38,785 nt of DNA, taken from IMG/VR virus record IMGVR_UViG_3300045988_184596, positions 1 to 38,785 of that record, one strand, 5' to 3'. The position numbers were made by a program, and so were the translations under genes. Shown here piece after piece: positions 1,757 to 32,356 of the stretch. Positions within the stretch are counted from its first letter, which is position 1. Every line of letters begins with the position of its first letter. The stretch is from a virus. Under the pieces are notes generated by a model, which searched no databases, was not told where the DNA came from, and saw only the letters and a list, made by a program, of their open reading frames with translations.

Positions 1757-2518
1757 TTATGCTACTTCAATTAATGGACCACAATTTACCCAAATTCCAC
1801 CGATTTTCGCAAGGTTCTTTTGTGCGTTGACTTCATCAACACGAATTCTTGTAACGTAGACAACGGCATTTGTGGTATGCAATACGTTATCATTATATCC
1901 ATCAGAGTAGCGAACTTTGTCAACCATACGAATTGGAAACCAACCACCTAATTGTGCAAGGTATGCGCATAAATCGCCATTGATTTGTTTCAATCCTTGA
2001 TTGCCAATCTTCATTTGAACTGATGTTACGTAGCTTCCTGCGTGCAAGATTTGGTCAATTGCTTCTACAGGTTGTGGAATGCTTGGTTTAACTGCTCCTG
2101 TGTTTGCGAAACATTTAGGTCTAAACGCAGTATCAAATGTTGCATAATAAGGCAATTTAATTAAATTGAATGCTCCACCTTTTCCACCTTGATTTTGACC
2201 CAAGAACCATCCTTGCTTTCCGTCAATATCAGAATCAAAGATTGCGATATGTGAGTATGGAGTCCATCCTGCTACTTCTTTAAATACCGCAATGTCTCCC
2301 GGTTGCATAATTGAGACTTCATTACAGTAATTCAAGATACCATTTGTTTTTCGATTGTTCCAAATGTCTTTTACAAATTTGCTTGTTGTACAATGGATAG
2401 CCTTATATCCTAAATCAATCATGTACTTTGTGAATCCGTCCCAACACTGCGCACCATAATATCCGTCAATGTCGAATGCTTTGCCTAATACGGCTTCTTT
2501 AAAACTTTGATAATTTAT
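1757..2518 (-). CDS. CHAP-domain endolysin with C-terminal wall-binding region; proposed ATA start at 2516-2518
   Basis: The frame is open upstream of the ORF-track ATG (2420-2422). It encodes INYQSFKEAVLGKAFDIDGYYGAQCWDGFTKY, carrying the CHAP catalytic Cys. His motif is in YSHIAIFD. AAAGGAGGA lies 10 nt before the ATA. Confidence 0.85.
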   Translation of the reverse strand: MNYQSFKEAVLGKAFDIDGYYGAQCWDGFTKYMIDLGYKAIHCTTSKFVKDIWNNRKTNGILNYCNEVSIMQPGDIAVFKEVAGWTPYSHIAIFDSDIDGKQGWFLGQNQGGKGGAFNLIKLPYYATFDTAFRPKCFANTGAVKPSIPQPVEAIDQILHAGSYVTSVQMKIGNQGLKQINGDLCAYLAQLGGWFPIRMVDKVRYSDGYNDNVLHTTNAVVYVTRIRVDEVNAQKNLAKIGGIWVNCGPLIEVA

Positions 2519-2543
2519 TAAAAAAAATCCTCCTTTATGTACT

Positions 2544-2561
2544 AATTATAGCACATAAAAG
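2544..2561 (-). promoter_or_regulatory. extended -10 promoter for the endolysin, copy 2 of the 18-bp repeat
   Basis: Minus strand TGTGCTATAAT about 25 nt upstream of the endolysin SD. Confidence 0.5.
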
Positions 2562-2571
2562 AGGTTTTTTA

Positions 2572-3009
2572 TCACTGATATACAGAGAACATTTCTCTTA
2601 ATTTATCTCTTACCATTTCTCTTTCTTCTTGAAAGTCGCTAGACGTTTTCATTTCTTCTAAGATTCCATACATAGCGCTCAAAAAAGCTTCTAACTCACG
2701 AATAGATGTTCGTTTATCAATTTCATTGTTATCTTTTCGATATTCTTTTTTTGCTTCTATGTATTTTCTAAAATGGCTATTCATCAATGCAATATTATCA
2801 TCAATTTCTGTCCCTTCAATATCCGTATCATTTGTTTTCAATGCGTTTATAGCAGTTCTTCCATCACTCATAGCCAATATTGTATCAATGTCTTTGATGT
2901 TGTCTAAGGCTTGGCTCATGACTTTAAAATCTAAATCATTGTATCCTCTTTCTAGTCCTCTCATTGCTTCCGTTAAGAGGTCTAGATTCCTTTTTCTAAC
3001 CTCTTGCAT
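2572..3009 (-). CDS. hypothetical all-helical acidic protein (cargo)
   Basis: 145-aa ORF. ATG preceded by TAGGTG. Confidence 0.6.
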   Translation of the reverse strand: MQEVRKRNLDLLTEAMRGLERGYNDLDFKVMSQALDNIKDIDTILAMSDGRTAINALKTNDTDIEGTEIDDNIALMNSHFRKYIEAKKEYRKDNNEIDKRTSIRELEAFLSAMYGILEEMKTSSDFQEEREMVRDKLREMFSVYQ

Positions 3010-3016
3010 GATACAC

Positions 3017-3436
3017 CTACGCTAATTTCTTAATGATGATATTTGCATTCTGAACAGATAAATCTAAGCCACTGTTATTTCCTAATGTAATTGTGTAAGA
3101 AGCTCCACAAGGTACTTGAATCAATGTAGCCCCACTTACATTTCCGTATGCACTTGCAGTAGCTACATTATATAAAGATTGTGTTCCGCCTACAATTTCT
3201 CCATTCTGTTCTAACTCTAAAGAAGCGACTCCTACTGTTGCACTTGTGATGTCTGCCGTATATTCTACTTCATAAATTCCTTGTTTTGTTAATGTAAATA
3301 GTCCACTACCTACATCATGAGCAAGCCAACCTTTACATGCACATTGGCAGGATTTAGTTCTTACTCTGTCCGTTGGAAATAATACATTTTGTCCGTTTGC
3401 TACTGTCTGTACTGCCGTTGCTATACTATTAATCAT
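3017..3436 (-). CDS. BclA C-terminal-domain-like (TNF/C1q-type jelly-roll) protein
   Basis: GLFTLTKQGIYEVEYTADITSATVG..LELEQNGEIVGG...NANIIIKKLA parallels, from my recollection, the BclA CTD (..ETGFYKITV..IQVNGVPV..SASIIIEKVA). No collagen repeats. AGGAGGAAAAGAAAA precedes the ATG. Confidence 0.5.
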   Translation of the reverse strand: MINSIATAVQTVANGQNVLFPTDRVRTKSCQCACKGWLAHDVGSGLFTLTKQGIYEVEYTADITSATVGVASLELEQNGEIVGGTQSLYNVATASAYGNVSGATLIQVPCGASYTITLGNNSGLDLSVQNANIIIKKLA

Positions 3437-3462
3437 TTTTCTTTTCCTCCTATAAAATAAAT

Positions 3463-3482
3463 GGGTAGCCTTTCGACTACCC
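3463..3482 (-). terminator. intra-cargo terminator
   Basis: Minus strand GGGTAG-TCGAAAGG-CTACCC followed by ATTTATTTTAT. Confidence 0.5.
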
Positions 3483-4889: not shown

Positions 4890-5154
4890 AATTCTTATCT
4901 AGATACATTTCTTTTTCACTGCTTTTTCTTGGTGGTAGGACTGCGCTATACTTCTCTACTTCATCATACTTGTTCTTTATTCTTTTGATGATTCTATTCA
5001 CACTAGAAACACTCATATTCAATCTATCGGCTTGTTCTCTGACTGTCCATCCGTATATTCTAGTTCTTAAAATCATTTCTTCATCTTTAGTTAATAAAGC
5101 TAGATTAATAAATTCTTCAAGAATAATCTTATTCCAGGGTACTTGATTCGTCAT
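4888..5154 (-). CDS. sigma-70 region-4-like / LuxR-type HTH small regulator
   Basis: 88 aa. LLTKDEEMILRTRIYGWTVREQADRLNMSVSSVNRIIKRIKNK fits the region 4 HTH pattern. Confidence 0.5.
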   Translation of the reverse strand: MTNQVPWNKIILEEFINLALLTKDEEMILRTRIYGWTVREQADRLNMSVSSVNRIIKRIKNKYDEVEKYSAVLPPRKSSEKEMYLDKN

Positions 5155-5635
5155 TTTCTTGTTCTTCGTTAACGAGTTTATCTGCTACTTCTAATCCTTT
5201 AGTTAATGCTTTTGGTACATTGTAACCACATTGTAATAAATTCTCCATAACGCTACGAGATTCATTAATACATAGCGAAGCTAACACAAACCAACCTAGC
5301 AATGTAGATACATGGAAATCAATTCCTAGAATTTCTCCTACTTCTACTAGAAACGCACTGAATGTGAACGCAACCACAATCATAATCCAATAGCCTAACT
5401 TTTTTAAAACACCTGTCCAACCTTTGTTGCTATTGATTTTATGAGCGATAGCCGATTTCATGCATCCTGTAATATAATCCACTACATTCATAAATAAGAA
5501 GAATGCGAATAAATACCAATGTTCACCTAATACGTATGTTAATACGGCTACGGCAACACCACACATTGCATTAATCTTATCTAGAAAAAACATACTTCTT
5601 GCTATTTGTTTAAATCCTCCATTTTTCTTTTCTAT
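5129..5635 (-). CDS. holin (TcdE / Holin_4_1-like family); proposed ATA start at 5633-5635
   Basis: Several TM segments. KGWTGVLKKLGYW and CINESRSVMENL motifs. TAAGGAG overlaps the ORF-track GTG; an in-frame ATA lies 8 nt after AAGGAG. Confidence 0.75.
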   Translation of the reverse strand: MEKKNGGFKQIARSMFFLDKINAMCGVAVAVLTYVLGEHWYLFAFFLFMNVVDYITGCMKSAIAHKINSNKGWTGVLKKLGYWIMIVVAFTFSAFLVEVGEILGIDFHVSTLLGWFVLASLCINESRSVMENLLQCGYNVPKALTKGLEVADKLVNEEQENDESSTLE

Positions 5636-6662: not shown

Positions 6663-7532
6663 CTATAAACCTAAATACCTTTCATTGTAGTAAACCGTAC
6701 AAGCTAGGTTCGTATCTCCATTGTCTGCCGTATATCCTATGATATTCTCACCCAACTGAATCGTCATATCATTGAATGATGATGTTCTATCAACTTTTCC
6801 GATACAATTCACACCATTCTTTTTGATTGATATAGGCTCAGAAACTAAATCAATTTCTAACACATCACCATTGTGTAGCGTATCTAATACACGAATATAT
6901 TTATCTTTGTTGAATAGTTTCGGATTTGTAACATCTCCAAACGCTTCAATAACGGCTCTGCAATATGTTTCTGTGTCGCCTTGATTATCAATATAGATTT
7001 CTCTAGCGAATGTAAATGTTCCAAAGTTTACGCCTGTTTCCGGTATTTCAAAATTGAACGCTAAACCTTCACCAATTTCTGCGATATTCCTTGCGAAATC
7101 ATCAAATGAAAGCAATAAAGGTTGTGTGCATAGAATTGTAAAGTTAAGCTCTAAATCTTTGTAGATGTTAACTGTAGGCAAGCTATACGCATATAAACGA
7201 CCTCTACAATATTTCTTTTCTCTCATGTACTCAACTATCACATCAAATATATGAGAATATTGGAAGAAGCGCCGTAGCTTCTCCCTTTCTTCTCTTTTTT
7301 CTTCTAGTGAACCTTTAAAGGTAGATTTCACGCTTCTTTCTTTCGTTGGAATACGTGAACCGATTAATCTAGCACCATTTCCGAATGCATTGTCTTGGGT
7401 AGTATACGAAGGTGCTACATAATCAAATCCATCTAATCCGTCACTAGATGGTATTCTCCATCTTTTGTTGTCGATTTCAAATTCTTTGCCATCATCCCTA
7501 CGGACAATAACTCTTACTTTATTGATATCTAT
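6663..7532 (-). CDS. distal tail protein (Dit); proposed ATA start at 7530-7532
   Basis: Frame open for 67 codons upstream of the ORF-track GTG with no ATG/GTG/TTG. GGAGGTG, 7 nt, then ATA overlapping the tape-measure stop (ATAG). Confidence 0.75.
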   Translation of the reverse strand: MDINKVRVIVRRDDGKEFEIDNKRWRIPSSDGLDGFDYVAPSYTTQDNAFGNGARLIGSRIPTKERSVKSTFKGSLEEKREEREKLRRFFQYSHIFDVIVEYMREKKYCRGRLYAYSLPTVNIYKDLELNFTILCTQPLLLSFDDFARNIAEIGEGLAFNFEIPETGVNFGTFTFAREIYIDNQGDTETYCRAVIEAFGDVTNPKLFNKDKYIRVLDTLHNGDVLEIDLVSEPISIKKNGVNCIGKVDRTSSFNDMTIQLGENIIGYTADNGDTNLACTVYYNERYLGL

Positions 7533-10108
7533 TGAACTACACCTCCATATCCATATCTTGCTTGCATTCGTAACATTCTAGCGATTTCATCCGGACTTTG
7601 CGCTTTATTGTAGAAGTTGATAGTTTGTCCATTGTTATTTGTCGTTACGCTTGGCATGATTTGAGCCATATCTTTAGCTACGGCACGAATCCACGCTTTA
7701 TTTTTTTCTAAAGGTACGACTGCTTCTGCCCCATTACCTTCTAATAAACCGATTTGACCACGCTTCAATACACCACCACGTTCTAATCTTGGAATCCTTC
7801 CAATGTGCACTCCGGGAATCTTATTGATGATACCGATTGCGCCGTTAATGCCACCGATAACTCCATTTACCATTCCTTTTACACTTCCAACTAATGAACT
7901 AACTGCTCCTTCAATTCCGCCAAATACACCACCTACAAATCCTTTTAAACCGCTCCATGCATTTTGTATGCCTTGTAGGACATTTGAAATTTTATTCCCT
8001 ACATTATCCATTACGCCTTGAACTTTAGACCAAATGCCATTAAATACATCAGAAACAGTACTCTTAACATTATTGAAATATTTATTGATATTATCAATAA
8101 CACCTTGAACCTTGTCTCTTACCTTGTTCATGGAATCTTGAATCTTACTCCAAATATTGTTTATGATGTCCGAAACCGTCTTAAATAAATTGCTTACGAA
8201 TCCAATAATAGCAGTAACTACTTCGCTAACTTTGCTCCAAATATTCTGAGCAACCGTTAATATTACAGACCAAATATTCGCTACAATTGTAGCTACAATT
8301 TGAACAATAGGCATGATAAAGCCTAGTATTGTTGCAATTGCAGTTCCGACATACGTCACAACCGTATTTATGAATGAAATGATTCCACTTACCACACTTC
8401 CCACAATTTGAAGGATAGATGTTATTACAGGAATCATGCCGATAACTGTTTGAATAATCTTCTTAATAATTGCTAGAATTGGTGGTCCTACTACGCTAAG
8501 AACCTTTTGAGCTTGGTTTACTACATTTTGAATTGCACTGCCTATCTTGCTTAAAATTTCTTTTGCAATAGGTTCAAGTGCAACTTTCATTTCATCAATC
8601 GCTTTTCTGACCTCATCAAAAGCAGGAGCTAACACCTCTGAAACTTGACTTGTCAATTCTGTAATTCCACTTGTATCAATCTTGCTTAATACATTTGAAA
8701 TTACATCACCAACTTTAGCAAATCCTTGTTGAATACCTTGTATAGCTACTGTAATTAATCCGATGATACCTGCAAGAATAGGGGTAATAAGTTCGCCTAT
8801 TGGAGTAAATGAATCAAGAAATGCACGTCCTAAGCCACTTAAAGCATTCTTTAAGCCACCATTTGCAATTTCTTTAACTTTATCCATTGCACCTTCTACA
8901 TCTTTATATTTATTCCCTACTGTCGTTAAGGACTGAATGAATCCGGCGTTGAAATCTTCTCCCATTGTACCGAAAGCCGTTGCCGATTTATTCAACTTTT
9001 CTTGTTCATTTGTAGTCTTTGAAATATCTTCTACAATCGCATTTACAACATCTTTTTGAGTTGCTCTTCCTTCTTGCCAAGCCTTAAAAACATCTTGCGT
9101 CTTGGTATCAAAACTATCCAACGCTCCTTCAATAGTTCCATCAACTAATCTTGTTGTAACTTCGTTAATTGCGTCGTTCACTTTGTCAAGGTTATAAGCT
9201 CCACCGTCTAAACCATTCTGCATTAATTGGAAATATTCATCTGCCGAATATCCTGCTTGTGCGAATTTACCGGAGTATTCTGAAATGTTGTCGCCTAACT
9301 CATCCGACTTATTCAAACCATTCTGAGCACCTGTAGCCATAAGGTCAAACGCTTCTTTAGAAGTGATTCCGAACTGCTTCATTAATTGTTGAGCACCTCT
9401 AAGAGTTTCATTCTCATCCATATCGAATGTGTCTCTTAAAGTTAATAAATCCTCGGTCACGTTCTTTAGGTCAACATCACTTATGCCTTGCATTTGTTGC
9501 TTGACTCTGCCCATCATATCGGCAACATCTGAAACATCTTCACCGAAATTATTTGACCAAACATCACGAGCAATGTTTTTAAATTTGCTCATTTCATTGC
9601 TTGAAGCACCTGTTTGAGCTTGAAATTTAGCCATAGCGTCATCTAATTCAGTAGCTTGATTTACACCTGTCTTAATTGCTAATGCCATTCCACCGATAGC
9701 TCCTGCTACGGCAGTAACACCAACAACACCTCCTACGCCTAATCCTGTTAGGGTTTCAGTGATTGCAGTAGCTTCCGGACTAATATTCTGAATCTTTCCT
9801 AATAGTCCATCAAATCCACCTTGAATTGATTCTAAGGCACTGTTTCCTACTTGTTTAAATACATCAAATTTAGAACCTGTTTCTTGCGTTTCTGTTTGTG
9901 TATTCTTTTGCTCTTCGTTTAAATCTTTAAGTTTATCTTTAATCTTTGGTGGTGCTTTTGAACCATCAGAACCTAGCTTGTCGATTGCTTTTGAAGTTTC
10001 TTTGATAGCATTTGTAGCTCCACTTGTGACTTCATGAACGGATTTCAGTCCATTCTCTAGACCACTTGTATCAATCTTTGTATCAAACTTTAATGTTCCG
10101 TCTGATAT
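7529..10108 (-). CDS. tail tape measure protein; proposed ATA start at 10106-10108
   Basis: Long helical/hydrophobic protein with NIWSK repeats. Frame open for 140 codons upstream of the ORF-track ATG, beginning ISDGTLKFDTKIDTSGLENG. AAAAGGAGGTG lies upstream. Confidence 0.85.
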   Translation of the reverse strand: MSDGTLKFDTKIDTSGLENGLKSVHEVTSGATNAIKETSKAIDKLGSDGSKAPPKIKDKLKDLNEEQKNTQTETQETGSKFDVFKQVGNSALESIQGGFDGLLGKIQNISPEATAITETLTGLGVGGVVGVTAVAGAIGGMALAIKTGVNQATELDDAMAKFQAQTGASSNEMSKFKNIARDVWSNNFGEDVSDVADMMGRVKQQMQGISDVDLKNVTEDLLTLRDTFDMDENETLRGAQQLMKQFGITSKEAFDLMATGAQNGLNKSDELGDNISEYSGKFAQAGYSADEYFQLMQNGLDGGAYNLDKVNDAINEVTTRLVDGTIEGALDSFDTKTQDVFKAWQEGRATQKDVVNAIVEDISKTTNEQEKLNKSATAFGTMGEDFNAGFIQSLTTVGNKYKDVEGAMDKVKEIANGGLKNALSGLGRAFLDSFTPIGELITPILAGIIGLITVAIQGIQQGFAKVGDVISNVLSKIDTSGITELTSQVSEVLAPAFDEVRKAIDEMKVALEPIAKEILSKIGSAIQNVVNQAQKVLSVVGPPILAIIKKIIQTVIGMIPVITSILQIVGSVVSGIISFINTVVTYVGTAIATILGFIMPIVQIVATIVANIWSVILTVAQNIWSKVSEVVTAIIGFVSNLFKTVSDIINNIWSKIQDSMNKVRDKVQGVIDNINKYFNNVKSTVSDVFNGIWSKVQGVMDNVGNKISNVLQGIQNAWSGLKGFVGGVFGGIEGAVSSLVGSVKGMVNGVIGGINGAIGIINKIPGVHIGRIPRLERGGVLKRGQIGLLEGNGAEAVVPLEKNKAWIRAVAKDMAQIMPSVTTNNNGQTINFYNKAQSPDEIARMLRMQARYGYGGVVQ

Positions 10109-11069: not shown

Positions 11070-11576
11070 TTATACTTCTGATGTGCCTTCTGTAAATGTT
11101 ACTGCTCCATCTGCTACCCTTGCAGTACCGACACGAATGTCGCTTGCAAAGTTAATGTTGAAGTTGATTTTTGAATCAACACCACTTAATGTGTCGAAAA
11201 TTAATTTAGCGTCAACTTCCCACGCTTTATAGCCTTTAGTTTTGTCTCCGTCAAACATAAATACAAGTAAAGCTTTTGTATTTACTTCTTCGTTGTTTGG
11301 TACGGATTTCATCATTTGTTCGTAAATGTATTCAAAATCATCTTCGCCTTTAATCATTGTTAAATCTTGCGAAATCTGAGGTGAATAACTCTTTAATGAT
11401 TCTGTTGGGTTCTTATCTGCGATAAAGTCATACGTTTCAGTTTCACTATTGAATGAAATATCTAAAGTTGTAGACTTTTTAATTCGCTTGTAACCTTCTC
11501 CCATTTGTAAGAACAATCCAATCATATACTTCTTGACTGTTTGTCCTGTAGTTACTTCAGTTCCTTGAGTTGCTAT
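11070..11576 (-). CDS. major tail protein; proposed ATA start at 11574-11576
   Basis: Position and size. Frame open for 17 codons upstream of the ATG, encoding IATQGTEVTTGQTVKKY. AAAGGAG, 8 nt, then ATA GCA overlapping the upstream TAA. Confidence 0.7.
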   Translation of the reverse strand: MATQGTEVTTGQTVKKYMIGLFLQMGEGYKRIKKSTTLDISFNSETETYDFIADKNPTESLKSYSPQISQDLTMIKGEDDFEYIYEQMMKSVPNNEEVNTKALLVFMFDGDKTKGYKAWEVDAKLIFDTLSGVDSKINFNINFASDIRVGTARVADGAVTFTEGTSEV

Positions 11577-11995
11577 TAATTAAGCTCCTTTCTGTATTTA
11601 ATTTGAATAGTCAATGCATATACTGCTTGATTATCCTCATTTGTGTATAGATATAAACCACTTGAAACGGAAACATCATCACAATGTCTGTTTCCGTCTA
11701 GTTGTGGTAATTCTCCGCTTAAATTCTTTTCGTCAATCCAATTTTCTAATTCTTCTAGAAAAACATTGTTATCTTGTCTTTCTGATTCAATTTGTGTATT
11801 CCTGCGTGCTAAAAACGTGTAGTATTCAGTACGCATTTGAGAACCATCAATGTATGTATTTACAATTGCGTTAGGTTCTTTATACAACGCATAAGAGATA
11901 GCTTGTTGCGCTAAAACATCCGTTTCAATACGTTCATCTATCTGTATATTTCCGTAGCCATATAGCCATTGAATCAACGCTTTTGATACTGTCAT
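11576..11995 (-). CDS. head-tail joining / tail terminator-like protein
   Basis: Position in the connector block. ATGA overlap. Confidence 0.45.
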   Translation of the reverse strand: MTVSKALIQWLYGYGNIQIDERIETDVLAQQAISYALYKEPNAIVNTYIDGSQMRTEYYTFLARRNTQIESERQDNNVFLEELENWIDEKNLSGELPQLDGNRHCDDVSVSSGLYLYTNEDNQAVYALTIQIKYRKELN

Positions 11996-12348
11996 TCACT
12001 ACCTCCTATCATTTTTTGCGCTTTCTTTAAGAGTGTCTCTGTTCCACCATTTCGCATAGCTTTTTTAAACCAATGGTCTGATTTACCACCAACGAAATGA
12101 GCATTCTCTTTGTTGTAATACCAACGTCTTGCATAAGGGGCGCTTGGTCCACCTTGTTTTACTAATCCACTACCAATTTGTGTTAATCGTGTAGCAGAGT
12201 TAATCAATGCTCCTGTGTCTCTAGGCGTATAGGTGGTCATAAGCCTAATGACTTCAGAATCAATCATTTGTTGAACTCGTCCACGTTCTTCAAGTCCTCT
12301 TGATTGCTTAATTTGGGGAATTGATTCAACATCAAGTTTGACTTTCAT
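11992..12348 (-). CDS. head-tail connector (minor capsid / gp10-like)
   Basis: ATG at 12346-12348 just after the upstream stop. ..TGALINSATRL..SAPYARRWYY.. Confidence 0.45.
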   Translation of the reverse strand: MKVKLDVESIPQIKQSRGLEERGRVQQMIDSEVIRLMTTYTPRDTGALINSATRLTQIGSGLVKQGGPSAPYARRWYYNKENAHFVGGKSDHWFKKAMRNGGTETLLKKAQKMIGGSE

Positions 12349-12350
12349 TC

Positions 12351-12770
12351 CTATTGACCGACAACCTCCCAATGCTTCAACATATCGACATTCGTACAAT
12401 CTGTTACGCTTTGAATCGTTGTCCATTTGTATTTCTTTTTAGCTTCATTTATTGCCTTGATGTTAGATAAATCTTCTTTGACCTCTCCAAAGAATACAAA
12501 ATCTGTTTTATCTGTATTTAATGTGAAGTGCTTTTGTTTATCATCATTTGAAAGCTTTGCATATGCGTACGGTTCAACATATCCATCACGATATAGAATG
12601 GTAATATTTGTGGATGTGGCTATGCTAAGAATATTACCATTTGCAGTTCTAACAGTAGATTGTCTCCACATACATTTATCAAGTATAGAAGCTTGAAATC
12701 TATCTTCTCTTGTCAATGTGTCATAGTAGTGATTTACAAGCGTGATTGAATCTTCAAAGAATCCTATCAT
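12351..12770 (-). CDS. head-tail connector protein
   Basis: ATGA overlap with 12767..13114. Confidence 0.45.
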   Translation of the reverse strand: MIGFFEDSITLVNHYYDTLTREDRFQASILDKCMWRQSTVRTANGNILSIATSTNITILYRDGYVEPYAYAKLSNDDKQKHFTLNTDKTDFVFFGEVKEDLSNIKAINEAKKKYKWTTIQSVTDCTNVDMLKHWEVVGQ

Positions 12771-13134: not shown

Positions 13135-13239
13135 CTATTTTTCTTTTTGAGGTTTAGCTTCCTCTTTTTTTGTTTGAGGTTTACCTTTTTTAGGCTTTTC
13201 AACTTTAGAAGGATAACCCCATCCGATTTCTTTCGCCAT
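13135..13239 (-). CDS. 34-aa lysine-rich peptide
   Basis: My translation: MAKEIGWGYPSKVEKPKKGKPQTKKEEAKPQKEK. TAATG overlap with the capsid stop. Confidence 0.3.
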   Translation of the reverse strand: MAKEIGWGYPSKVEKPKKGKPQTKKEEAKPQKEK

Positions 13240-14108
13240 TACTTAGCACTAGCAGATAAGTAAATACCTGCTACCTTATTTTGGTATACATCGACGATTC
13301 CATATTTACGATATTTTAATACATCTGAATCTGATTCAATGTTATTTCTTGCCGGAATTACATTTGAAACGGTGTGTTTATCCCATTTCATGACGGCAGG
13401 TTTATGAACAATCAAGAAGTTGATTACGTGTCCATCCTCCGCTTTTTCGTATCCGCCATCTAACTCTGTATCTTTTCCACTCAACAATTTGATTTTTGTG
13501 TAAAAACGACTTGCGGGTACAGGAACAACTTTTGCAAATCCTTGTAAAGCTTCACGAGATTTGTAAGTGTCCAACGCCTTAACGCTATTTAATAATGTTG
13601 GTGTTGAATACAAGATACGTTGTTCGCTAGGAACTTCATCCTCATCCATTTTAGTGATAGCCGTTAATAATGCGCTCAAGAACTCTTCTGCACCTGTATA
13701 ATCTTCTGAAACCTTTGTGATTCCTGTTGTTCCGGCAATCTTAGCGAATGTGTAAGCGTCTGCTTCCGGTGCAACCTTTGTACGCATTAACTCCGCTCCT
13801 GCCATGCCAAACGCAATATTCATTGATTCTGCGTTATCTTGTGTATCAACTGAGATTTTAGTTCCTCGGTCATAGTCGAATGTAGCAGTTTTCCATTCTA
13901 ACTTAACTGAGTTACCTGTATAACCACTGTTTCTATCGTAGTTTCCTAAACCTTTAACAGAAATTTGTGGATAAATGATTTCTTTTGCGTTTGCTCCTGC
14001 TCGTACCATTGTAGCGTCTGCGTTTAAATCACCTGTAACTGAAGCTAACTTATATACCTCATCCAAATTTGAGACATACGTTTTAGCTAATGCAATTTCA
14101 TTTGGTAT
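13239..14108 (-). CDS. major capsid protein; proposed ATA start at 14106-14108
   Basis: Position after the scaffold. The N-terminus IPNEIALAKTYVSNLDEVYKLAS is coded upstream of the ORF-track TTG. AAGGAGGA, 8-9 nt, then ATA. Confidence 0.8.
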   Translation of the reverse strand: MPNEIALAKTYVSNLDEVYKLASVTGDLNADATMVRAGANAKEIIYPQISVKGLGNYDRNSGYTGNSVKLEWKTATFDYDRGTKISVDTQDNAESMNIAFGMAGAELMRTKVAPEADAYTFAKIAGTTGITKVSEDYTGAEEFLSALLTAITKMDEDEVPSEQRILYSTPTLLNSVKALDTYKSREALQGFAKVVPVPASRFYTKIKLLSGKDTELDGGYEKAEDGHVINFLIVHKPAVMKWDKHTVSNVIPARNNIESDSDVLKYRKYGIVDVYQNKVAGIYLSASAK

Positions 14109-18719: not shown

Positions 18720-19015
18720 GTAATCACTTCCTTATTCAATACTCTATATACCTTTGTTGTCTTGATAGGAGAAGCAATAGCAACTCCGCCTTTTGTAATC
18801 ATTCTTAATTGAATGTTACAAGTTCCCTCTTTGAAATTGAGCGTTTCTTCTTGGCTTAACAACACTGAAATAGTATTTCCTTCAATGTCTAAATCACTTG
18901 ATTCTTTTTTCAAGATATATCCGTTCTGTTCAAATACCACATAGATATTCTGCATTTCATTTAAATCAATATCATTTATTGTGATTTGAATTGTTGGCGT
19001 AGTTCCTTGTCTCAT
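18716..19015 (-). CDS. hypothetical beta-rich fibre-module protein
   Basis: AAGGTGAAATC then ATG at 19013-19015 (ATGA overlap). MRQGTTPTIQITINDIDL.. Confidence 0.5.
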   Translation of the reverse strand: MRQGTTPTIQITINDIDLNEMQNIYVVFEQNGYILKKESSDLDIEGNTISVLLSQEETLNFKEGTCNIQLRMITKGGVAIASPIKTTKVYRVLNKEVIT

Positions 19016-19821: not shown

Positions 19822-21221
19822 TCTTCGTCATCCCCCTCTCCATCATCTTGAATTTCTTCATTTAATAACTCCGTTGCTTCTTCTTCAGTAAAGCCGTATT
19901 GTTTCATGAAGTACATGATTTTTAATCTTGGAATATCAAATGTTAATGCGTCATTTCTTAACGCTTGTGCGGTACTTTGTTTATCCTCGATATATGTATC
20001 GTCATAATCAATTGCAATATCTAATGAATTGATATTAAGCTTTCTGCCTTGTGTTAATTCATAGAAGTATGCTATTGCTTGAATGATATCTTGAATATAT
20101 GCAGTAGATTCTTTACGTTGTGAATTTACTTCTTTCATTGCGTCTTGATTTTCGCCGATATATTCTGTAGCCGTTACGATTCTTCCACTTTCAAACGTGT
20201 ATTTTTTTGTACCGAATCCAAACATCATTGATAAGATACTTAACGCAGTTTCTAACGATTGCACAACCTCTTGAGTTCTAACTGTTGGATTGTATTCTTG
20301 CCATAAAGCTTTTTCTTCCGGAAGCTTATCTCTACCTAACTGAACGAATATCTTTTTCATTTGTGGATTCATCTTAATCTTTCCATTCTCGTCTTTCTGC
20401 ATTAATGCTTCATTCACAAGAACGATTTTATCTGATTTCAACAAATCACGATTCCACATTGTCATTGTTAAATCGATTGTTTTCAATGGAGCAATTGCGC
20501 TCCAAATCTTCGGCAAGCCGTAACCTTGCATTTGTAAGTTGTTTACCTTTGCGTTTCTCATAATTGCAAACGGCTTTACAACATCTAATTGAACAATCTG
20601 AGCACGGTCTTTTATTTCTTCGCCTGTATCTTTGAAGTAATGTGTTTCTGCAATGTATCTTTCGTCTTGTCCTTTTAAGAACATGACCATCACATATACT
20701 TTTTTTAACTTCTCATAATTTACTCCAACGAAAGCAACTTCCACAATTTCATCATTGATAACAGTTAATGGAAGGATATTCATTGAATCACAATAGTTGA
20801 TTCTGATTTCTCCTCCACTGAATGTACCATCTTCATAAATCTCGGCATTTGATACCGTCACATAAGCTCCTACCGTACCATTTGCAGACATTTGCTCAAC
20901 TTGTTTCCTGTACATTACATCAAATCTATTCTTCGTTAGAATGTCTGAGATAATGTCATTTGTAACGCTATCCTCTGTAGCGTTTATATCTAGGATTTCA
21001 ATTAAGTTTGCGTCATCCTCGCATAAACGCTTTGCGAAGTCTGTTTTGTCTAGCGTGTATTCCTCATTGTTCAAGGTATATGCCGTATGAAATTCTGTTT
21101 CGGTATTTGTGTACCACTTGTTACACAATTCAATAATCTCAATTGCGTTAGTATCTACATAATACCCTCTTTCGTTAAGGTAGTTTTGAAACCACGGTCT
21201 ACGTGTGTTAGATGTTTCTAT
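19818..21221 (-). CDS. portal protein; proposed ATA start at 21219-21221
   Basis: Size and position after TerL. Frame open for 31 codons upstream of the ORF-track TTG. AAGGAGGT, 5 nt, then ATA immediately after the TerL stop. Confidence 0.8.
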   Translation of the reverse strand: METSNTRRPWFQNYLNERGYYVDTNAIEIIELCNKWYTNTETEFHTAYTLNNEEYTLDKTDFAKRLCEDDANLIEILDINATEDSVTNDIISDILTKNRFDVMYRKQVEQMSANGTVGAYVTVSNAEIYEDGTFSGGEIRINYCDSMNILPLTVINDEIVEVAFVGVNYEKLKKVYVMVMFLKGQDERYIAETHYFKDTGEEIKDRAQIVQLDVVKPFAIMRNAKVNNLQMQGYGLPKIWSAIAPLKTIDLTMTMWNRDLLKSDKIVLVNEALMQKDENGKIKMNPQMKKIFVQLGRDKLPEEKALWQEYNPTVRTQEVVQSLETALSILSMMFGFGTKKYTFESGRIVTATEYIGENQDAMKEVNSQRKESTAYIQDIIQAIAYFYELTQGRKLNINSLDIAIDYDDTYIEDKQSTAQALRNDALTFDIPRLKIMYFMKQYGFTEEEATELLNEEIQDDGEGDDEE

Positions 21222-21224: not shown

Positions 21225-22562
21225 TTACCTCCTTAAATCTATATATCCACTATGTGTGATAAATGTATAGCAGAACGAATCCCAATCATCATTGATATTG
21301 TTTACGTTCTCATCTTTTGGAATGTCTTTCTTTTCATCCCATACTAATTCGCTCAATACGTTTATTAAATTCTTACAATGTTCCTCTATCTTTAACCTTC
21401 CCGTAACAAGTAAGCTATCAACTGTTATAGGACGGTCTGTAAGCTCATTCTTCTTAACTGGTGCAATTATACTTCCGTCTAATCCTTCGGCGTAAAAATA
21501 AGCTCTAAGCGTGTTTATCAACGTATTAGAAGCACTGTCCGGAAATATCCATTCTACATATCCGTAACATTCAATACAACGCTTATAGAATCTTACAAAT
21601 GCTTTGCAGAACTTTGTTGCGTCTATTGCATTTGACTTTGCCATGTCGCCTTCATCAAGTGCCCACATATAATCCCAATCATTTGTGAACCCTGTTAAAT
21701 GCCATGAATACTTTGAGCCATTGTCTCCAAAGTCAACACCTATGATTAAATGACTAAACCTTTTTCCTTTTTCTTTCATCTTTTCTTTTAGACTCTGATA
21801 TTTGAATAGGTAAGGTTTGCAGTCATTTGCAAAATAAGGGAATACAAGTCCTTCGGCAACCATTCTTTCACCTAGAATATCTCGCTTGTACCATACTGAA
21901 TTCATATCATATTTGTTTTGGATTTCTTCGATTCTTTCTTGGCTCATTGTAGCATTGTCAAAAATGTTGAAGTGCTCATATCTGTACCAATCTAACCCCA
22001 TGAATTTATCTATGTAATTCTTATAAATGTCTGCGTTTGGGTTTGATGGGTTTAAATCCCATAATGTAAATGGATGTACACTTGCAATCTGTCTTGCCAT
22101 TGCTACCTTGATAAAGCTTGTTCTAGAATCCTCACAATCGTAATGCTCATTTATTTCGGTGGCAATCCATCCTCCATATGAGTTACCTAATATGCTCTTA
22201 TATGAATCAGACTTCCCACCACCTGTGAATATAACAATCTTTTCGCCTGTCTTTGTTTGAATAAATAGTGCTTCGTTTGATTTGTATTTACCCCAACGAC
22301 AACGTCCACGAAAGATATGCTCTAAGCCGAAACCATTGCAATCACCTATATTTAATTTCGCATTTGGTAAGCTTGAACCACTCGCTAAATGTATTTTATC
22401 TTCACATGTTTCTAAATACATTGAAAAGATTATGCAGTGGTCAATCGTTTTACCACTTCGTACCGCTCCTTCTGCTACACTTTGTTTGTAATTTAGGGCG
22501 GTCTTAATATAGTTCTTGTGTTTATCTGAAAATTTCCCCCAAGGAATCGTTCTAGTCATCAT
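21225..22562 (-). CDS. terL: terminase large subunit
   Basis: Walker A GAVRSGKT. 445 aa. ATG coupled to the TerS stop. Confidence 0.9.
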   Translation of the reverse strand: MMTRTIPWGKFSDKHKNYIKTALNYKQSVAEGAVRSGKTIDHCIIFSMYLETCEDKIHLASGSSLPNAKLNIGDCNGFGLEHIFRGRCRWGKYKSNEALFIQTKTGEKIVIFTGGGKSDSYKSILGNSYGGWIATEINEHYDCEDSRTSFIKVAMARQIASVHPFTLWDLNPSNPNADIYKNYIDKFMGLDWYRYEHFNIFDNATMSQERIEEIQNKYDMNSVWYKRDILGERMVAEGLVFPYFANDCKPYLFKYQSLKEKMKEKGKRFSHLIIGVDFGDNGSKYSWHLTGFTNDWDYMWALDEGDMAKSNAIDATKFCKAFVRFYKRCIECYGYVEWIFPDSASNTLINTLRAYFYAEGLDGSIIAPVKKNELTDRPITVDSLLVTGRLKIEEHCKNLINVLSELVWDEKKDIPKDENVNNINDDWDSFCYTFITHSGYIDLRR

Positions 22563-22900
22563 TTTAATAAATCTGCCAAAGGTGTTAAATCCTCAATCTC
22601 ATGTGTCATTGTTTGCTCAACCTTTTCGGTCTGTCCAAGCATTTGTTTACCTAACCAAATAAGCATGGTCGTATTCCCTTTTGAAGCTTTGTCAAATTGC
22701 ATACGTCTTAAACTTCTTTTTGAGTGGCTTATACCTTTTTTATATGTCTGACAAAACTTTCTATTTCTTAATAATGTTCTTACCGAACATCCTAGGAAAT
22801 CTGCAATTTCTTCTTGAGTACATCCAATAGAAGCAAGCTTTTCAACTGCTTCATAATCAATCTTTATTCTTGGGCGTCCTCCTGCGTGTTTCTCTGCTAT
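22559..22900 (-). CDS. terS: terminase small subunit; proposed ATA start at 22898-22900 (ORF-track ATG at 22922-22924 lacks an SD)
   Basis: AEKHAGGRPRIKIDYEAVEKLASIGCTQEEIADFLG HTH. GGGGGT, 6 nt, then ATA GCA, starting 1 nt after the stop of 22902..23051. Confidence 0.7.
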   Translation of the reverse strand: MAEKHAGGRPRIKIDYEAVEKLASIGCTQEEIADFLGCSVRTLLRNRKFCQTYKKGISHSKRSLRRMQFDKASKGNTTMLIWLGKQMLGQTEKVEQTMTHEIEDLTPLADLLK

Positions 22901-24351: not shown

Positions 24352-24352
24352 C

Positions 24353-25712: not shown

Positions 25713-25737
25713 AAAAGAACCGAGACAAACGCTCGGT
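25713..25737 (-). terminator. terminator downstream of the tRNA
   Basis: Minus strand ACCGAG-CGTTTGT-CTCGGT followed by TCTTTT. Confidence 0.6.
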
Positions 25738-25819: not shown

Positions 25820-25895
25820 TGGTTGCAGGAGAAGGATTTGCACCATTCGACCTCTAGCTAATAAGACTAGTGAGCTACTACTGCTCTATCCTGCT
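25820..25895 (-). tRNA. initiator-like tRNA with anticodon UAU (reads AUA), CCA encoded
   Basis: Hand-folded cloverleaf: AGCAGGA-TA-GAGC-AGTAGTA-GCTC-A-CTAGT-CTTATTA-GCTAG-AGGTC-GAA(T)GG-TGCAAAT-CCTTC-TCCTGCA-A-CCA. See findings for its initiator-like and atypical features. Confidence 0.7.
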
Positions 25896-25901: not shown

Positions 25902-25910
25902 ATTATTACA
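25902..25910 (-). promoter_or_regulatory. candidate extended -10 (TGTAATAAT) for the tRNA
   Basis: Hexamer AATAAT ends 6 nt upstream of tRNA position 1. Confidence 0.35.
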
Positions 25911-25912: not shown

Positions 25913-25934
25913 AAAAAATGCTCACATTGTGAGC
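25913..25934 (-). terminator. terminator at the end of the early operon
   Basis: Minus strand GCTCAC-AAT-GTGAGC followed by ATTTTTT. Overlaps the stop of 25922..26248. Confidence 0.55.
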
Positions 25935-26248
25935 ACTTTCTTTAAGCTCTTATTTATTTTTCTTGGAATCTCTTCTCGAGCATAACCTACAATATTAGAT
26001 GTCTTTTCTGCACTGAATCCCTTTATATATCTATACTCAATCATTGTACGAGTTGTATCATCAAGTTGGCTTAATTTATCTTTTACATAATTCATTCTTC
26101 TTGCATAATCTGCATGAGCCAAGAATAGCTCGGCTTTTAAAGGATAAATAGCTTCATCCCTTTGTAGCTCTGCTATCTTTTGCTCATAATATGTGTATGA
26201 TTGACATTCGCACAAAAAGTGTCTCTTAATATCTTCATATGTGCTCAT
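25922..26248 (-). CDS. ArpU/RinA-like late-gene transcriptional regulator (sigma region-4-like)
   Basis: 108 aa. TRTMIEYRYIKGFSAEKTSNIVGYAREEIPRKINKSLKK. Last gene of the early block. Confidence 0.5.
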   Translation of the reverse strand: MSTYEDIKRHFLCECQSYTYYEQKIAELQRDEAIYPLKAELFLAHADYARRMNYVKDKLSQLDDTTRTMIEYRYIKGFSAEKTSNIVGYAREEIPRKINKSLKKVLTM

Positions 26249-30667: not shown

Positions 30668-30680
30668 TTGTTATCTCCTT

Positions 30681-30938
30681 TTATAATTCAATATTTTCAA
30701 TCAATGCTCTTTTTTCGAGGATTGATAAATATAATCCCATGTACCTTTTCTGCTCCCTTAGTAATTCAAGTGGGCAATCATGCTTAGTTACTTCTTTCCC
30801 AAGCATTTCTTCAACTTCAATTTTGTTGCAGAAATTCTTCAATTTCTCATATCTGATTTTTACTTGGCGATATTCTGCTACAAATCTTTCTTTGTAATCG
30901 CTTGAACACATTAATTCAATTGTTTCTTTTAATTCCAT
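30681..30938 (-). CDS. hypothetical protein
   Basis: AAAAAGGAGAAAAACAAC then ATG. Confidence 0.5.
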   Translation of the reverse strand: MELKETIELMCSSDYKERFVAEYRQVKIRYEKLKNFCNKIEVEEMLGKEVTKHDCPLELLREQKRYMGLYLSILEKRALIENIEL

Positions 30939-30975
30939 GTTGTTTTTCTCCTTTTTCTAACATCATTTAATCCAT

Positions 30976-31233
30976 TTATTTCACTTCATCAAAGTCCGAA
31001 TAATATTCAACGCTTACGACTTCACCGTGCTTTGTCTGTAATTCTATGATTCTTTTTTCTAGCTCTTTGTTTTGATATTCAAGTGTTCTGATTCTTCTTC
31101 TGTATTCTTCGTATTTAAAAATACATTTACAAGCTTTGTCTTGTTCTTCTTGAATCCTTTTTCCTACCATTAGGCTATATAGAAGAAGTGTTGCACCACT
31201 TCCACATATAGCTCCACAAATCCAATTAATCAT
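30976..31233 (-). CDS. small N-terminally membrane-anchored coiled-coil protein
   Basis: WICGAICGSGATLLLYSLMV TM segment. GAGAGGTGAATAA before the ATG. Confidence 0.5.
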   Translation of the reverse strand: MINWICGAICGSGATLLLYSLMVGKRIQEEQDKACKCIFKYEEYRRRIRTLEYQNKELEKRIIELQTKHGEVVSVEYYSDFDEVK

Positions 31234-31245
31234 TTATTCACCTCT

Positions 31246-31977
31246 CTACGCTCTTAATATTTCTTTCCTTACTCGTTCCATTTCTTTCTGTACATCTGCA
31301 TACGATTGATTGCTTTCTTGTGCATAGAATTTAGAATCAAGTTTAACAGGATTGTTCTTATTTCTTTTCATCCATTCATCATGTACCCACTTTTGAATCA
31401 CTAGTGAATGGTTCTTATATTTCTTTCCACTCGTTTCAATATATTCATCTAATATCTTTATATGCTCATCTAATGAATCACCATATAAATCTAATAGGTG
31501 TGTGTGTTCTTTATCTGTAAGTAACACGTGTTGAAATTCTCCGTATTTATGTTTGTGCGTACATACATTAATATTATTTTTATTTAATTCATTTTTAGTT
31601 GAATTATTATTTAATTTAATAGGGTTTAGATTTTCTAATTTTAGATTTTCTATTTTTAGATTTTCTATTTTTAGATTTTCTAAATTCCGAGGATTGTCTA
31701 TTAATGTATATTGCCAATCAACAATTAAATTACCTTCTCTAATAGGTTCACGAATTAAATATCCTTTATTCATTAATTCTTTTAAACCGGAACGAACACT
31801 TGATATTCCATCTGTAGCTAATGCTTTAATACTGTTTTCCTTAAAGTCCCAATTATCCGGAAGGCTTAACATTTGGCAAAACAAGCCTTTTGCTTTATAG
31901 GATAGTTCTCTATCGTGAAATATTTCATTGTTAACGTGTGTATACCCACTTTGTAGGCTTTTCTTTAGTTCTGCTAT
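31246..31977 (-). CDS. replication initiator / replisome organiser (DnaD-like winged helix N-terminus); proposed ATA start at 31975-31977
   Basis: N-terminus ..GYTHVNNEIFHDRELSYKAKGLFCQMLSLPDNWDF.. is typical. GGGGGTG overlaps the ORF-track GTG. ATA GCA lies 6 nt after the SD and 1 nt after the RusA stop. Confidence 0.65.
   Translation of the reverse strand: MAELKKSLQSGYTHVNNEIFHDRELSYKAKGLFCQMLSLPDNWDFKENSIKALATDGISSVRSGLKELMNKGYLIREPIREGNLIVDWQYTLIDNPRNLENLKIENLKIENLKLENLNPIKLNNNSTKNELNKNNINVCTHKHKYGEFQHVLLTDKEHTHLLDLYGDSLDEHIKILDEYIETSGKKYKNHSLVIQKWVHDEWMKRNKNNPVKLDSKFYAQESNQSYADVQKEMERVRKEILRA
31626..31685. repeat. four tandem 15-bp iterons (TTAGATTTTCTAWWT) inside the initiator gene; candidate origin
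   Basis: Direct reading. Translated as ENLKIENLKIENLKLENL. Flanked by an AT-rich stretch at 31561-31625. Confidence 0.75.
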
Positions 31978-31978
31978 T

Positions 31979-32356
31979 CTAATCACCCCCTAGAATTTCT
32001 ACCTCTATTCTTGGATTTTGTTTATCTGTAAATACTGAATGATTCACTTGATTAATGTATTTCCTTGAATCATCCTCAAGTATTCCTGTTCTAACTAATG
32101 AATCTTGAATGAATTTAGTTGCAAATGTTACGTTATCAACATCACGCCTTGAATTCGGTTCATACCAATTAATATTTAATTTAATTGGGTATTTTTTTAC
32201 TTCGTAAACCTCGCCAAAGTTTACTGCCTGTAAGATATAAGCCATAACTAATCGCTCATTCTTTTTCTTCATTTCTGCTCCTTTGTAACGATTTGTTCTG
32301 CAAGCATTAATATATTCATTCAATCCATCTAGTTTTCCTTTAATTACAAATTTTAT
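31979..32356 (-). CDS. rusA: RusA-family Holliday junction resolvase; proposed ATA start at 32354-32356
   Basis: ..LNEYINACRTNRYKGAEMKKK.. and ..RRDVDNV...ILEDDSRKY.. motifs. The conserved first strand KFVIKGKLDG lies upstream of the ORF-track TTG. AAGGTGGA, 5 nt, then ATA. Confidence 0.7.
   Translation of the reverse strand: MKFVIKGKLDGLNEYINACRTNRYKGAEMKKKNERLVMAYILQAVNFGEVYEVKKYPIKLNINWYEPNSRRDVDNVTFATKFIQDSLVRTGILEDDSRKYINQVNHSVFTDKQNPRIEVEILGGD

Follow-up and report, generated by a model that had tools for sequence, protein, structure and literature searches.

A putative phage-encoded initiator tRNA with anticodon UAU and its ATA start codons in a 38.8-kb prophage

How does a phage begin translation of its portal, major capsid, tape measure and endolysin genes if, in each of them, the stretch from the upstream in-frame stop to an ATA codon lying behind a strong Shine-Dalgarno (SD) sequence contains no ATG, GTG or TTG? 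This question is raised by a gut-bacterial prophage of 38.8 kb and approximately 33% G+C, positions 1 to 38,785 of the IMG/VR record IMGVR_UViG_3300045988_184596 ('the window', meaning this whole stretch of DNA), in which the minus strand carries nearly all genes. To our knowledge, every cell and virus starts its proteins with one initiator tRNA, which reads AUG and near-cognate codons. The answer proposed here, with a probability of roughly four in five, is that this prophage carries a private initiation channel, in which an orthogonal initiator tRNA encoded by the phage itself, with anticodon UAU, is paired with ATA start codons.

The initial annotation of the window, made from its letters alone, had described twelve ATA codons 5-11 nt behind strong SD sequences; its coordinates, like those below, are plus-strand coordinates of minus-strand codons. 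A scan of every stop-to-stop frame, in which the upstream region was scored for pairing with the 3' end of 16S rRNA, reproduced that description: all twelve sites read ATA on the minus strand, the SD strings and spacings are as given there, and ATA is followed by GCx at five of the twelve. In nine of the genes no ATG, GTG or TTG occurs from the upstream in-frame stop to the ATA, which lies 0-9 codons past that stop behind a strong SD (-9 to -17 kcal/mol). In these genes a canonical codon comes only 11-140 codons downstream of the ATA, with a weak SD or none. The other three, encoding the replication initiator, the small terminase and the holin, have a GTG or ATG further upstream that is inside the SD or lacks one, as had been claimed, and the duplex energies for these upstream codons are -7.2, -0.7 and +0.8 kcal/mol respectively, against -13.6, -10.7 and -8.3 kcal/mol for the ATA codons. 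The scan added a probable thirteenth ATA start at 12354 and a second SD-coupled ATA in the holin gene at 5605. The genes concerned are as follows.

31979..32356 (minus strand): RusA-like resolvase, rusA; ATA at 32354-32356; Pfam RusA and PHROG matches from residue 2.
31246..31977 (minus strand): replication initiation protein, rep; ATA at 31975-31977; PHROG match of residues 4-152 to profile positions 5-153.
22559..22900 (minus strand): small terminase, terS; ATA at 22898-22900; PHROG match, with ATG-starting homologues beginning at about the same residue.
19818..21221 (minus strand): portal; ATA at 21219-21221; PHROG portal match of residues 22-462 to profile positions 27-482.
19012..19821 (minus strand): head protein; ATA at 19819-19821 in an ATAG overlap with the portal stop; PHROG match of residues 3-224 to profile positions 8-248.
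17770..18378 (minus strand): 202-aa virion-region protein; ATA at 18376-18378; relatives L008 and L005 have ATG at this exact codon.
13239..14108 (minus strand): major head protein; ATA at 14106-14108; PHROG_422 match of residues 3-288 to profile positions 3-294 of 297.
11992..12354 (minus strand): minor head protein-like; probable ATA at 12352-12354 in an ATAG overlap with the upstream stop.
11070..11576 (minus strand): major tail protein candidate (PHROG_3099); ATA at 11574-11576 in a TAATA overlap with the upstream stop.
7529..10108 (minus strand): tape measure; ATA at 10106-10108, the first codon past the in-frame stop; PHROG matches from residue 7.
6663..7532 (minus strand): distal tail protein (Dit); ATA at 7530-7532 in an ATAG overlap with the tape-measure stop; profile matches.
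5129..5635 (minus strand): holin; SD-coupled ATA at 5633-5635 and a second at 5603-5605.
1757..2518 (minus strand): CHAP-domain endolysin; ATA at 2516-2518; Pfam CHAP from residue 18, PHROG match of residues 2-78 to profile positions 5-86.

At the 5' ends of open reading frames (ORFs), the SD-coupled non-canonical picks comprise 13-15 ATA, two ATT and one ATC, although ATA is the rarest isoleucine codon within genes (173, against 507 ATT and 206 ATC); relative to this internal usage, the excess of ATA at ORF 5' ends has a binomial p of ~1e-7 to 1e-8. The ATA genes belong to the replication (RusA, replication initiator), packaging (small terminase, portal), head (two head proteins, major capsid, minor head protein), tail (major tail, tape measure, Dit) and lysis (holin, endolysin) modules, such that 11 of the 13 are packaging, head, tail or lysis genes, and no ATA start is found in the integrase, repressor, early-left or cargo regions. 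The majority of phage genes keep ATG starts and so depend on the host initiator. All ORFs of the window are intact under translation table 11, with no in-frame stop readthrough. Two of the labels in the initial annotation had to be given up: profiles assign its 'fibre-anchor' gene at 19821 to head-protein families, and no function is assigned to the gene at 18378 that it called a tail fibre.

Several lines of evidence argue that the ATA codons are the real start codons of these genes. The extended N-termini, which the initial annotation had described as conserved-looking coding sequence, do align with known families, since PHROG and Pfam profiles match up to the N-termini that ATA defines, and in distant homologues of rusA, terS and portal with normal starts the ATG coincides with the ATA or is a few residues away from it (in rusA, the ATG of homologues L015 and L019 aligns with it). 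Starting at the first canonical codon would cost the head protein at 19821 92 aa (TTG) and the tape measure 140 aa (ATG), and in the endolysin the first ATG (residue 33) falls downstream of the QCW cysteine motif of the CHAP domain. The three ATAG overlaps and the TAATA overlap listed above mirror both kinds of overlap seen at canonical starts of the window, namely nine of the ATGA/GTGA type and two of the TAATG type.

Relatives were collected with a neighbouring 435-aa protein (gene 23044-24351) as the probe, which retrieved 43 viral loci; as these are related to one another, counts across them are descriptive. In 16-18 close relatives ATA stands at the same positions as in the window. The gene at 18378 begins with ATA in eight distinct sequence contexts and with ATG in three, and the gene at 17519 starts with ATG in the window and with ATA in L013; at such sites of interchange between ATA and ATG, none of the relatives compared has ATT, ATC, GTG or TTG. 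Non-orthologous alleles follow the same rule. Three types of replication initiator have SD-coupled ATA starts, the two alleles found in relatives likewise reading SD-ATA-GCA, and so do three types of small terminase in the family; in the diverged phage L114, the gene at the terS position, just upstream of that for the large terminase (terL), likewise starts with ATA. At the probable thirteenth site there is an alternative ATG two codons downstream of the ATA, but the L114 orthologue has an unambiguous ATA directly behind a stop. The holin PHROG profile fits the second ATA slightly better than the first, and a dual start is possible, since two SD-coupled ATA codons 30 nt apart would resemble a dual-start holin/antiholin arrangement with ATA at both positions.

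The tRNA that would read these codons lies at the border between the early/replication genes and the packaging genes.

25820..25895 (minus strand): tRNA derived from an initiator, anticodon UAU, CCA end encoded; match to the Rfam tRNA model at 25823-25895 (minus strand) with 48.8 bits.

ARAGORN finds no tRNA in the window, because the T stem of this one contains a bulged U and its T loop has G55. Its acceptor stem has an unpaired A1xA72 followed by G2:C71 and C3:G70, with A73 as the discriminator; the D stem, GAGC/GCUC with A11:U24, is identical to that of E. coli and Listeria-type initiators, and the variable loop is AGGUC. The anticodon loop, CUUAUUA, has U37 (25858, minus strand) and closes on a stem of A:U (29:41), G:C (30:40) and U.G (31:39), while the T arm in the window has, besides the single bulged U in its stem, the loop UGCAAAU. 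The sister variants in L099, L104 and L114 have a canonical T arm, with a T loop of the initiator type, UUCAAAU, in L099 and L104. When eight phage variants and two reference initiators are aligned, the ten sequences fit one cloverleaf with 94.8% of cells paired. Position 1:72 is paired in none of the ten, being the canonical C1xA72 in L079 and L114; A73, G2:C71 and C3:G70, the formylation determinants of initiators, are invariant, as is G30:C40, and 27:43, 28:42 and 29:41 show compensatory changes. The tRNA has been selectively maintained. Pairs 29:41, 30:40 and 31:39 are G:C, G:C and U.G in variants B, F, G and H. Formylation identity consists of the 1:72 mismatch with A73, G2:C71 and C3:G70, the esterified amino acid being irrelevant (PMC9976931), and in E. 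coli G30:C40 alone is necessary and can suffice for initiator function, mycoplasmas naturally carrying initiators of the au/GC/gu type (PMC5389676).

The ancestry of this tRNA is indicated by its closest matches. A blastn search of 5,426 E. coli genomes with the family variant from L010 gave matches annotated as tRNA-Met and none as tRNA-Ile, at a median of four places per genome, and annotated matches in phage records are tRNA-Met as well. The best E. coli place, at 77% identity, is a three-gene tRNA-Met cluster between mltA and amiC, which we take to be the initiator genes metZWV; identity to this gene and to a Listeria-type initiator is 77-81%. Changes from tRNA(fMet) cluster near the anticodon, comprising U34, U37 and U31.G39, and are kept in both lineages of the phage tRNA. 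A genuine elongator tRNA-Ile(UAU) differs throughout: that of L244 has the D stem GCUC/GAGC, a G1:C72 pair and A37, and the hallmarks of elongators (paired 1:72, Y11:R24, A37) are replaced in the window tRNA by unpaired 1:72, A11:U24 and U37. On these sequence comparisons, tRNA(UAU) is judged to descend from the bacterial initiator tRNA(fMet), by a change of anticodon from CAU to UAU and with loss of elongator features, and is best called an initiator derivative, neither a member of tRNA(fMet) nor a tRNA-Ile.

CAU-anticodon tRNAs that have the acceptor and T stems of the window tRNA were seen in many phages (L170, L232, L176, L190, L196, L184 and L211), L170 and L232 also having its unusual D loop (AGUAGUA) and a T loop of the UGCAA type. 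These are likely to be ancestors or siblings of the UAU version; the contigs that carry them mostly lack SD-led genes and are uninformative as controls. One search pattern, GCTC N5 TCTTATTAG N4 AGGTC, also matched a conserved element other than a tRNA on contigs of ~43% GC (L097, L098 and L100-L103), and these matches were discarded.

The initial annotation had suggested a survey of related prophages for joint occurrence of the tRNA and the ATA starts, and the two do occur together. The tRNA is present in every close relative whose fetched DNA spans the site, and pattern scans place it on many further viral and metagenome contigs. In 17 loci with the tRNA there are 117 SD-coupled ATA starts and 232 canonical ones; by contrast, 31 loci that lack it, and have only the probe gene in common (73-83% identity), yield 25 ATA and 338 canonical starts (Fisher p = 8e-20, descriptive only because the loci are related). 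A canonical start lies no more than four codons away from approximately half of these 25 ATA picks, and the remainder are mostly internal. No such tRNA was found in the tRNA-less loci by blastn or ARAGORN, seven of them also being checked with Rfam. L114 extends the association across a deep divergence, being 73% identical to the window in terL, 62% in the portal, 57% in the orthologue of the gene at 12354 and 54% in the major capsid. It keeps tRNA(UAU), in the C1xA72 version, and seven of its 12 SD-coupled starts are ATA, including those of the portal, the capsid, the 12354 orthologue and the gene at the terS position. As the same genes begin with ATA in L114, the choice of ATA genes has been conserved over this distance.

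If the phage tRNA reads the start codon, a change in anticodon should be accompanied by a change in start codon, and related tRNAs allow this correspondence to be followed. Viral contigs were scanned for tRNA bodies of the initiator type that have U31.G39, whatever the anticodon; the scan, for which counts are lower bounds, identified at least 64 contigs with CAU, at least 28 with CCU, at least five with CAG and at least two with CUU. Each non-CAU anticodon among the matches listed is one base away from CAU, and 1:72 is unpaired in all unique CCU, CAG and CUU sequences among them. Among the matches listed (loci L060-L331), U37 occurs in 0/76 tRNAs with CAU, 13/28 with UAU, 4/6 with CCU, 1/1 with CAG and 1/1 with CUU. 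ARAGORN names these sisters tRNA-Arg(cct), tRNA-Leu(cag) and tRNA-Lys(ctt), the supposed tRNA-Leu being 76 nt in length with no long variable arm. Examples are the following.

L244, 7352-7425 (minus strand): initiator-like tRNA, anticodon CCU.
L187, 8129-8202 (minus strand): initiator-like tRNA, anticodon CCU.
L301, 5863-5938 (plus strand): initiator-like tRNA, anticodon CAG.
L273, 13612-13688 (minus strand): initiator-like tRNA, anticodon CUU.

In L244 (CCU), AGG stands in the place of a start codon in the portal, head protease and major head protein genes, and in L187 it does so in the portal gene, where the profile match runs from residue 2 whereas no canonical codon occurs before codon 14. 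In L301 (CAG), the genes that appear to start with CTG are those for the portal, the major head protein, the small terminase and the large terminase, the last of which has its first canonical codon at 109; in L273 (CUU) the portal and major head protein genes appear to start with AAG. A tally blind to codon identity, which records the in-frame codon 5-11 nt past an SD where no canonical start sits, has ATA (61) as the top codon in UAU loci, CTG in CAG loci and AAG in CUU loci; in CCU loci AGG appears along with the codons that follow it, and in CAU loci nothing is prominent. This tally replaced a first specificity matrix built on the first SD-coupled candidate codon, which was confounded by the purine-rich spacer codons AGA, AAG and AAA. 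The major head protein shows the substitution within one family, as its L114 orthologue starts with ATA and its L301 homologue with CTG:

Window capsid N-terminus: start ATA, then PNEIALAKTYV.
L114 capsid N-terminus: start ATA, then ANSIALSKNYV.
L301 capsid N-terminus: start CTG, then PYNNQIELAKSYV.

The portal and major capsid are the most consistently recoded genes across all four systems, and the tRNA of the sister systems is likewise inside or beside the packaging/head module. That the start codon follows the anticodon from system to system is the strongest argument that these tRNAs read start codons. Phages of gut Firmicutes have probably evolved private start codons repeatedly, from copies of the initiator tRNA altered by one base in the anticodon; the pairs would be UAU/AUA, CCU/AGG, CUU/AAG and CAG/CUG, on portal, capsid, terminase and other key genes, often with U37 and U31.G39.

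Other observations were made on these contigs. L234 and L256 are also among those with an initiator-like CCU, CAG or CUU tRNA. L244 carries its canonical elongator tRNA-Ile(UAU) (8230-8303, minus strand) on the same contig as the initiator-like tRNA(CCU), giving a side-by-side contrast. On L160, many ORFs have no canonical start at all and one begins with ATA right behind TAG; this contig may use another code.

The host was assigned from the flanks of integrated copies, which adjoin an aro operon. The proteins of this operon fall in 90%-identity clusters whose named members are Holdemanella and Solobacterium (Erysipelotrichaceae), and in L050-L054 (1-10000) the prophage is integrated next to a Ser/Thr kinase gene and the aro operon of a Holdemanella/Solobacterium-like bacterium, with a Tn916-type Xis/Int pair a few kb from the integration site. 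In the host flank 11 of the 11 called genes start with ATG, most with an SD, and an unbiased scan of this small sample detected no SD-coupled ATA start. Within genes, the phage uses ATA at 14.7 per 1000 codons, against 13.2 for the host flank; internal usage is not raised, and there is therefore no sign of a demand for tRNA(UAU) in elongation. No cultured-phage record was matched in a megablast search with 15 kb of the window, and a scan of GTDB genomes with the 435-aa protein gave only distant relatives, on contigs from metagenome-assembled genomes of inconsistent taxonomy that indicate no host and are probably binned phage contigs. This protein had been considered as the large terminase, which was rejected in favour of a radical-SAM-like protein on PHROG and Pfam evidence; terL is the gene at 21225-22562, with an ATG start.

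The surroundings of the tRNA contain several candidate control elements, as follows.

25922-26248 (minus strand): gene for a small protein that weakly matches sigma-70 region 4, adjoining the tRNA on its upstream side.
25919..25935 (minus strand): terminator-like hairpin and T-run just ahead of the tRNA, at the 3' end of the sigma70_r4-like gene.
25902..25910 (minus strand): possible extended -10 promoter element, TGTAATAAT, as read from the sequence, ending 6 nt before tRNA base 1.
25740-25815 (minus strand): conserved segment of ~80 nt, from the tRNA to the downstream hairpin, with long-range pairing AAAGCCTA ... TAGGCTTT.
25719..25737 (minus strand): terminator-like hairpin downstream of the tRNA, just before the SD of the next gene; conserved in the family.
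23044-25694 (minus strand): ParB_N-domain protein, TET-associated glycosyltransferase (TAGT) and the 435-aa radical-SAM-like protein (GTG start), between the tRNA and terS.

The product of the first of these genes may be a late-gene activator at the early/late boundary. The promoter-like pattern TGnNATAAT is kept in the family variants TGCGATAAT and TGCAATAAT, and in the diverged lineage of L114 a TATAAT lies 17 nt upstream of the tRNA. The hairpin GCTCACA-N3-TGTGAGC occurs twice in the window, at 25920-25934 and, between the minor head and scaffold genes, at 14786-14800, and could be a terminator or a regulatory site; the proposal that it is an operator shared with the immunity region was rejected, as it is not found there and recurs upstream of the scaffold gene. 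The three genes at 23044-25694 are likely to form a DNA-modification cluster.

The central claim of the initial annotation, that the ATA starts depend on the phage tRNA(UAU), thus gains support from the profiles, the interchange of ATA with ATG, the initiator ancestry of the tRNA, the co-occurrence of the two and the sister systems. The tRNA would be charged, candidates being isoleucine and methionine, and then formylated by the host formyltransferase, which is expected because the acceptor-stem determinants are intact; the 1:72 mismatch should keep it off EF-Tu. IF2 would carry it to the P site, where it would pair perfectly with AUA, and since codon and anticodon are complementary, IF3, which checks this complementarity, should let it pass. 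The ATA genes would be translated efficiently only with the phage tRNA, AUA being predicted to be a poor near-cognate start for the host initiator alone. At least one essential gene in each of the replication, packaging, head, tail and lysis modules would depend in this way on a factor made by the phage; the arrangement might form a multi-point lock that keeps the lysogen from leaky expression, or a device for timing or coupling. Either silencing in the lysogen or timing is plausible as the purpose.

Certain features of the locus sit less easily with a private initiation channel, and the whole case for it is computational. The set of three consecutive G:C pairs typical of initiators is incomplete; 31:39 is U.G rather than the G.U of natural variants, 4:69 is A:U where the minor formylation determinant is G4:C69, and the anticodon is UAU, not the CAU of bacterial initiators. 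Typical MetRS, and many IleRS enzymes, charge tRNAs with a UAU anticodon poorly, and the bulged T stem and G55 of the window variant are sufficiently irregular for ARAGORN to reject it. Unrelated contigs, some of them GC-rich, carry an initiator-type tRNA(UAU) with A37, often with all three G:C pairs (L148, L128, L150, L160 and L109/L166; further cases are L162, L132, L110 and L061/L077), and these do not support the model, since no SD-coupled ATA starts were detected near the tRNA. As to purpose, rusA and rep are early or middle genes that also start with ATA, and a model of late timing alone therefore leaves some sites unaccounted for; and the promoter-like element and flanking terminator-like hairpins of the tRNA might permit its expression in the lysogen, which would weaken the idea of a lock.

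The alternative that survives best accepts the same mechanism and differs over what it is for. The private initiator might keep phage translation going when the pool of host initiator is attacked or limiting, for instance by VapC-type initiator-cleaving toxins or anticodon nucleases, or it might keep proteins that trigger defences, such as portal, terminase and capsid, silent until lysis. The conservation of further changes in the anticodon stem-loop (U31.G39 and U37), in two diverged lineages and in the CCU, CAG and CUU tRNAs, is in keeping with this, as is the consistent recoding of portal and major capsid in all four systems, and phage tRNAs are known to escape anticodon-loop nucleases by mutations in the loop (PMC10264068). 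However, a general rescue of translation is not possible when most phage genes start with ATG and need the host initiator, and no toxin or nuclease partner was identified. Such a purpose is accordingly possible but unlikely.

It is far harder to sustain that the tRNA is an ordinary tRNA-Ile(UAU) compensating for codon usage in elongation, with the ATA codons being independent weak near-cognate starts for the host tRNA(fMet), in the manner of the AUU start of infC. Codon compensation is the usual explanation of phage tRNAs, the anticodon is indeed UAU, and ARAGORN names the sister tRNAs of the UAU family tRNA-Ile(tat); AUA can also serve as a weak start with a normal initiator (PMC5499595). Against this, no variant has a pair at 1:72, initiator-type features are seen in the D stem, variable loop and T loop, the closest E. 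coli matches are all tRNA-Met, the true elongator in L244 is different, and internal ATA usage is not raised. Nor do weak starts make much sense for proteins in such high demand as the major capsid, portal and tape measure, or explain why the sites hold only ATA or ATG and never ATT or ATC, why ATA starts are confined to genomes that bear the tRNA, and why the start codon tracks the anticodon in the sister systems. This explanation is therefore considered very improbable.

The weakest explanation, that the ATA codons are ATG altered by errors of sequencing, assembly or modification-induced base calling (a single G-to-A change would suffice), or that the true starts lie downstream of non-coding extensions, as the choices of gene callers in public records might suggest, can be dismissed: identical ATA codons are present in dozens of assemblies made independently, by different studies and with different pipelines (IMG/VR, ENA, Logan, JGI), which disposes of the systematic assembly error that the initial annotation had named as a danger, they recur in a lineage only 54-62% identical in protein, the other ATG starts of the window are intact, often in the same A-rich context, and the extensions match family profiles, among them the catalytic region of CHAP and, in the head and tape-measure proteins, 92-140 aa.

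A phage-encoded initiator matched to ATA would have consequences for annotation as well as for biology. Public calls (L050/L051, 16463-17540) shorten the ATA genes, rusA being given as 114 or 97 aa instead of 125 and rep as 208 or 246 aa. As ATA genes are truncated or shifted and the window tRNA escapes ARAGORN, annotation of these phages by automatic means is systematically wrong: gene callers truncate or miss the genes, tRNA finders miss the tRNA or call it Ile, Arg, Leu or Lys, and gut-virome annotations of capsid, portal, tape measure and lysin are affected throughout. If the interpretation is true, the virion and lysis genes would be untranslatable unless the phage's own initiator were expressed, and a natural second initiator paired with a defined set of genes would constitute a new layer of gene control. 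The pair might also serve as a ready-made natural part for phage containment and orthogonal expression. A full-text literature search, the coverage of which was incomplete so that an earlier description is possible, turned up engineered systems only; neither for phages nor for any other natural system did it find a second initiator whose anticodon is not CAU, and the phage-encoded pair of initiator and start codon appears to be without natural precedent.

Among known systems, the simplest for comparison is near-cognate initiation by a normal initiator, as at the AUU start of infC and the AUA and AUU starts of mitochondria and mycoplasmas. These resemble the window in having a start codon of the AUN type behind an SD, but they involve a single cellular initiator, with CAU that is sometimes modified, and either a weak start or a genome-wide change of code, whereas the window has a second, dedicated initiator and only a defined subset of phage genes uses AUA. 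Elongator tRNA-Ile(UAU), present in Mycoplasma mobile, lactic acid bacteria and many phages according to references listed in PMC9976931, shares the UAU anticodon and the same automatic name. It differs in its paired 1:72, its Y11:R24 D stem (GCUC/GAGC) and its A37, and it reads internal AUA codons.

The closest relative in sequence is tRNA(fMet) itself, represented by E. coli metZWV and metY, with which the phage tRNA shares 77% identity, unpaired 1:72, G2:C71, C3:G70, A73, A11:U24, AGGUC, G30:C40, the encoded CCA and, in some phage variants, a T loop of the UUCAAAU type. It departs from tRNA(fMet) in having UAU in place of CAU, U37 in place of A37 and U31.G39 in place of G31:C39, and also in A:U at 29:41 in the window, A1 instead of C1 in the main lineage, a shorter D loop, a bulged T stem and G55; and, unlike tRNA(fMet), it is the product of a phage gene and has a matching set of phage genes that start with ATA.

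In its logic, the pair in the window also resembles man-made systems. Engineered initiators with changed anticodons start at the matching codon (bioRxiv 10.1101/2021.05.25.445580, 10.1101/524249), and phiX174 has been made dependent on one (bioRxiv 10.1101/2024.07.29.605542). As with the amber initiator, i-tRNA(AAC) and the biocontainment of phiX174 with TAG starts, an initiator with a changed anticodon would read a complementary non-AUG codon in the window and, as in the phiX174 case, essential phage capsid genes would depend upon it. In those orthogonal systems the tRNA is supplied by the host strain; by contrast, the pair in the window is natural, encoded by the phage, conserved over deep divergence and directed at a sense codon, AUA. 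The natural parallel is the recoding of stop codons, as Ivanova et al. 2014 and Borges et al. 2022 are said to have found it in phages that encode suppressor tRNAs. In both cases a cognate tRNA encoded by the phage alters the reading of one codon, this codon is concentrated in structural, packaging and lysis genes, and control of late or lytic translation is the proposed role. Stop-codon recoding acts on in-frame stops during elongation through suppressor tRNAs, while the window would involve the start codon, the P site and a derivative of the initiator. If confirmed, the latter would be a natural orthogonal initiation system, the start-codon counterpart of stop-codon recoding and the natural counterpart of engineered orthogonal initiation.

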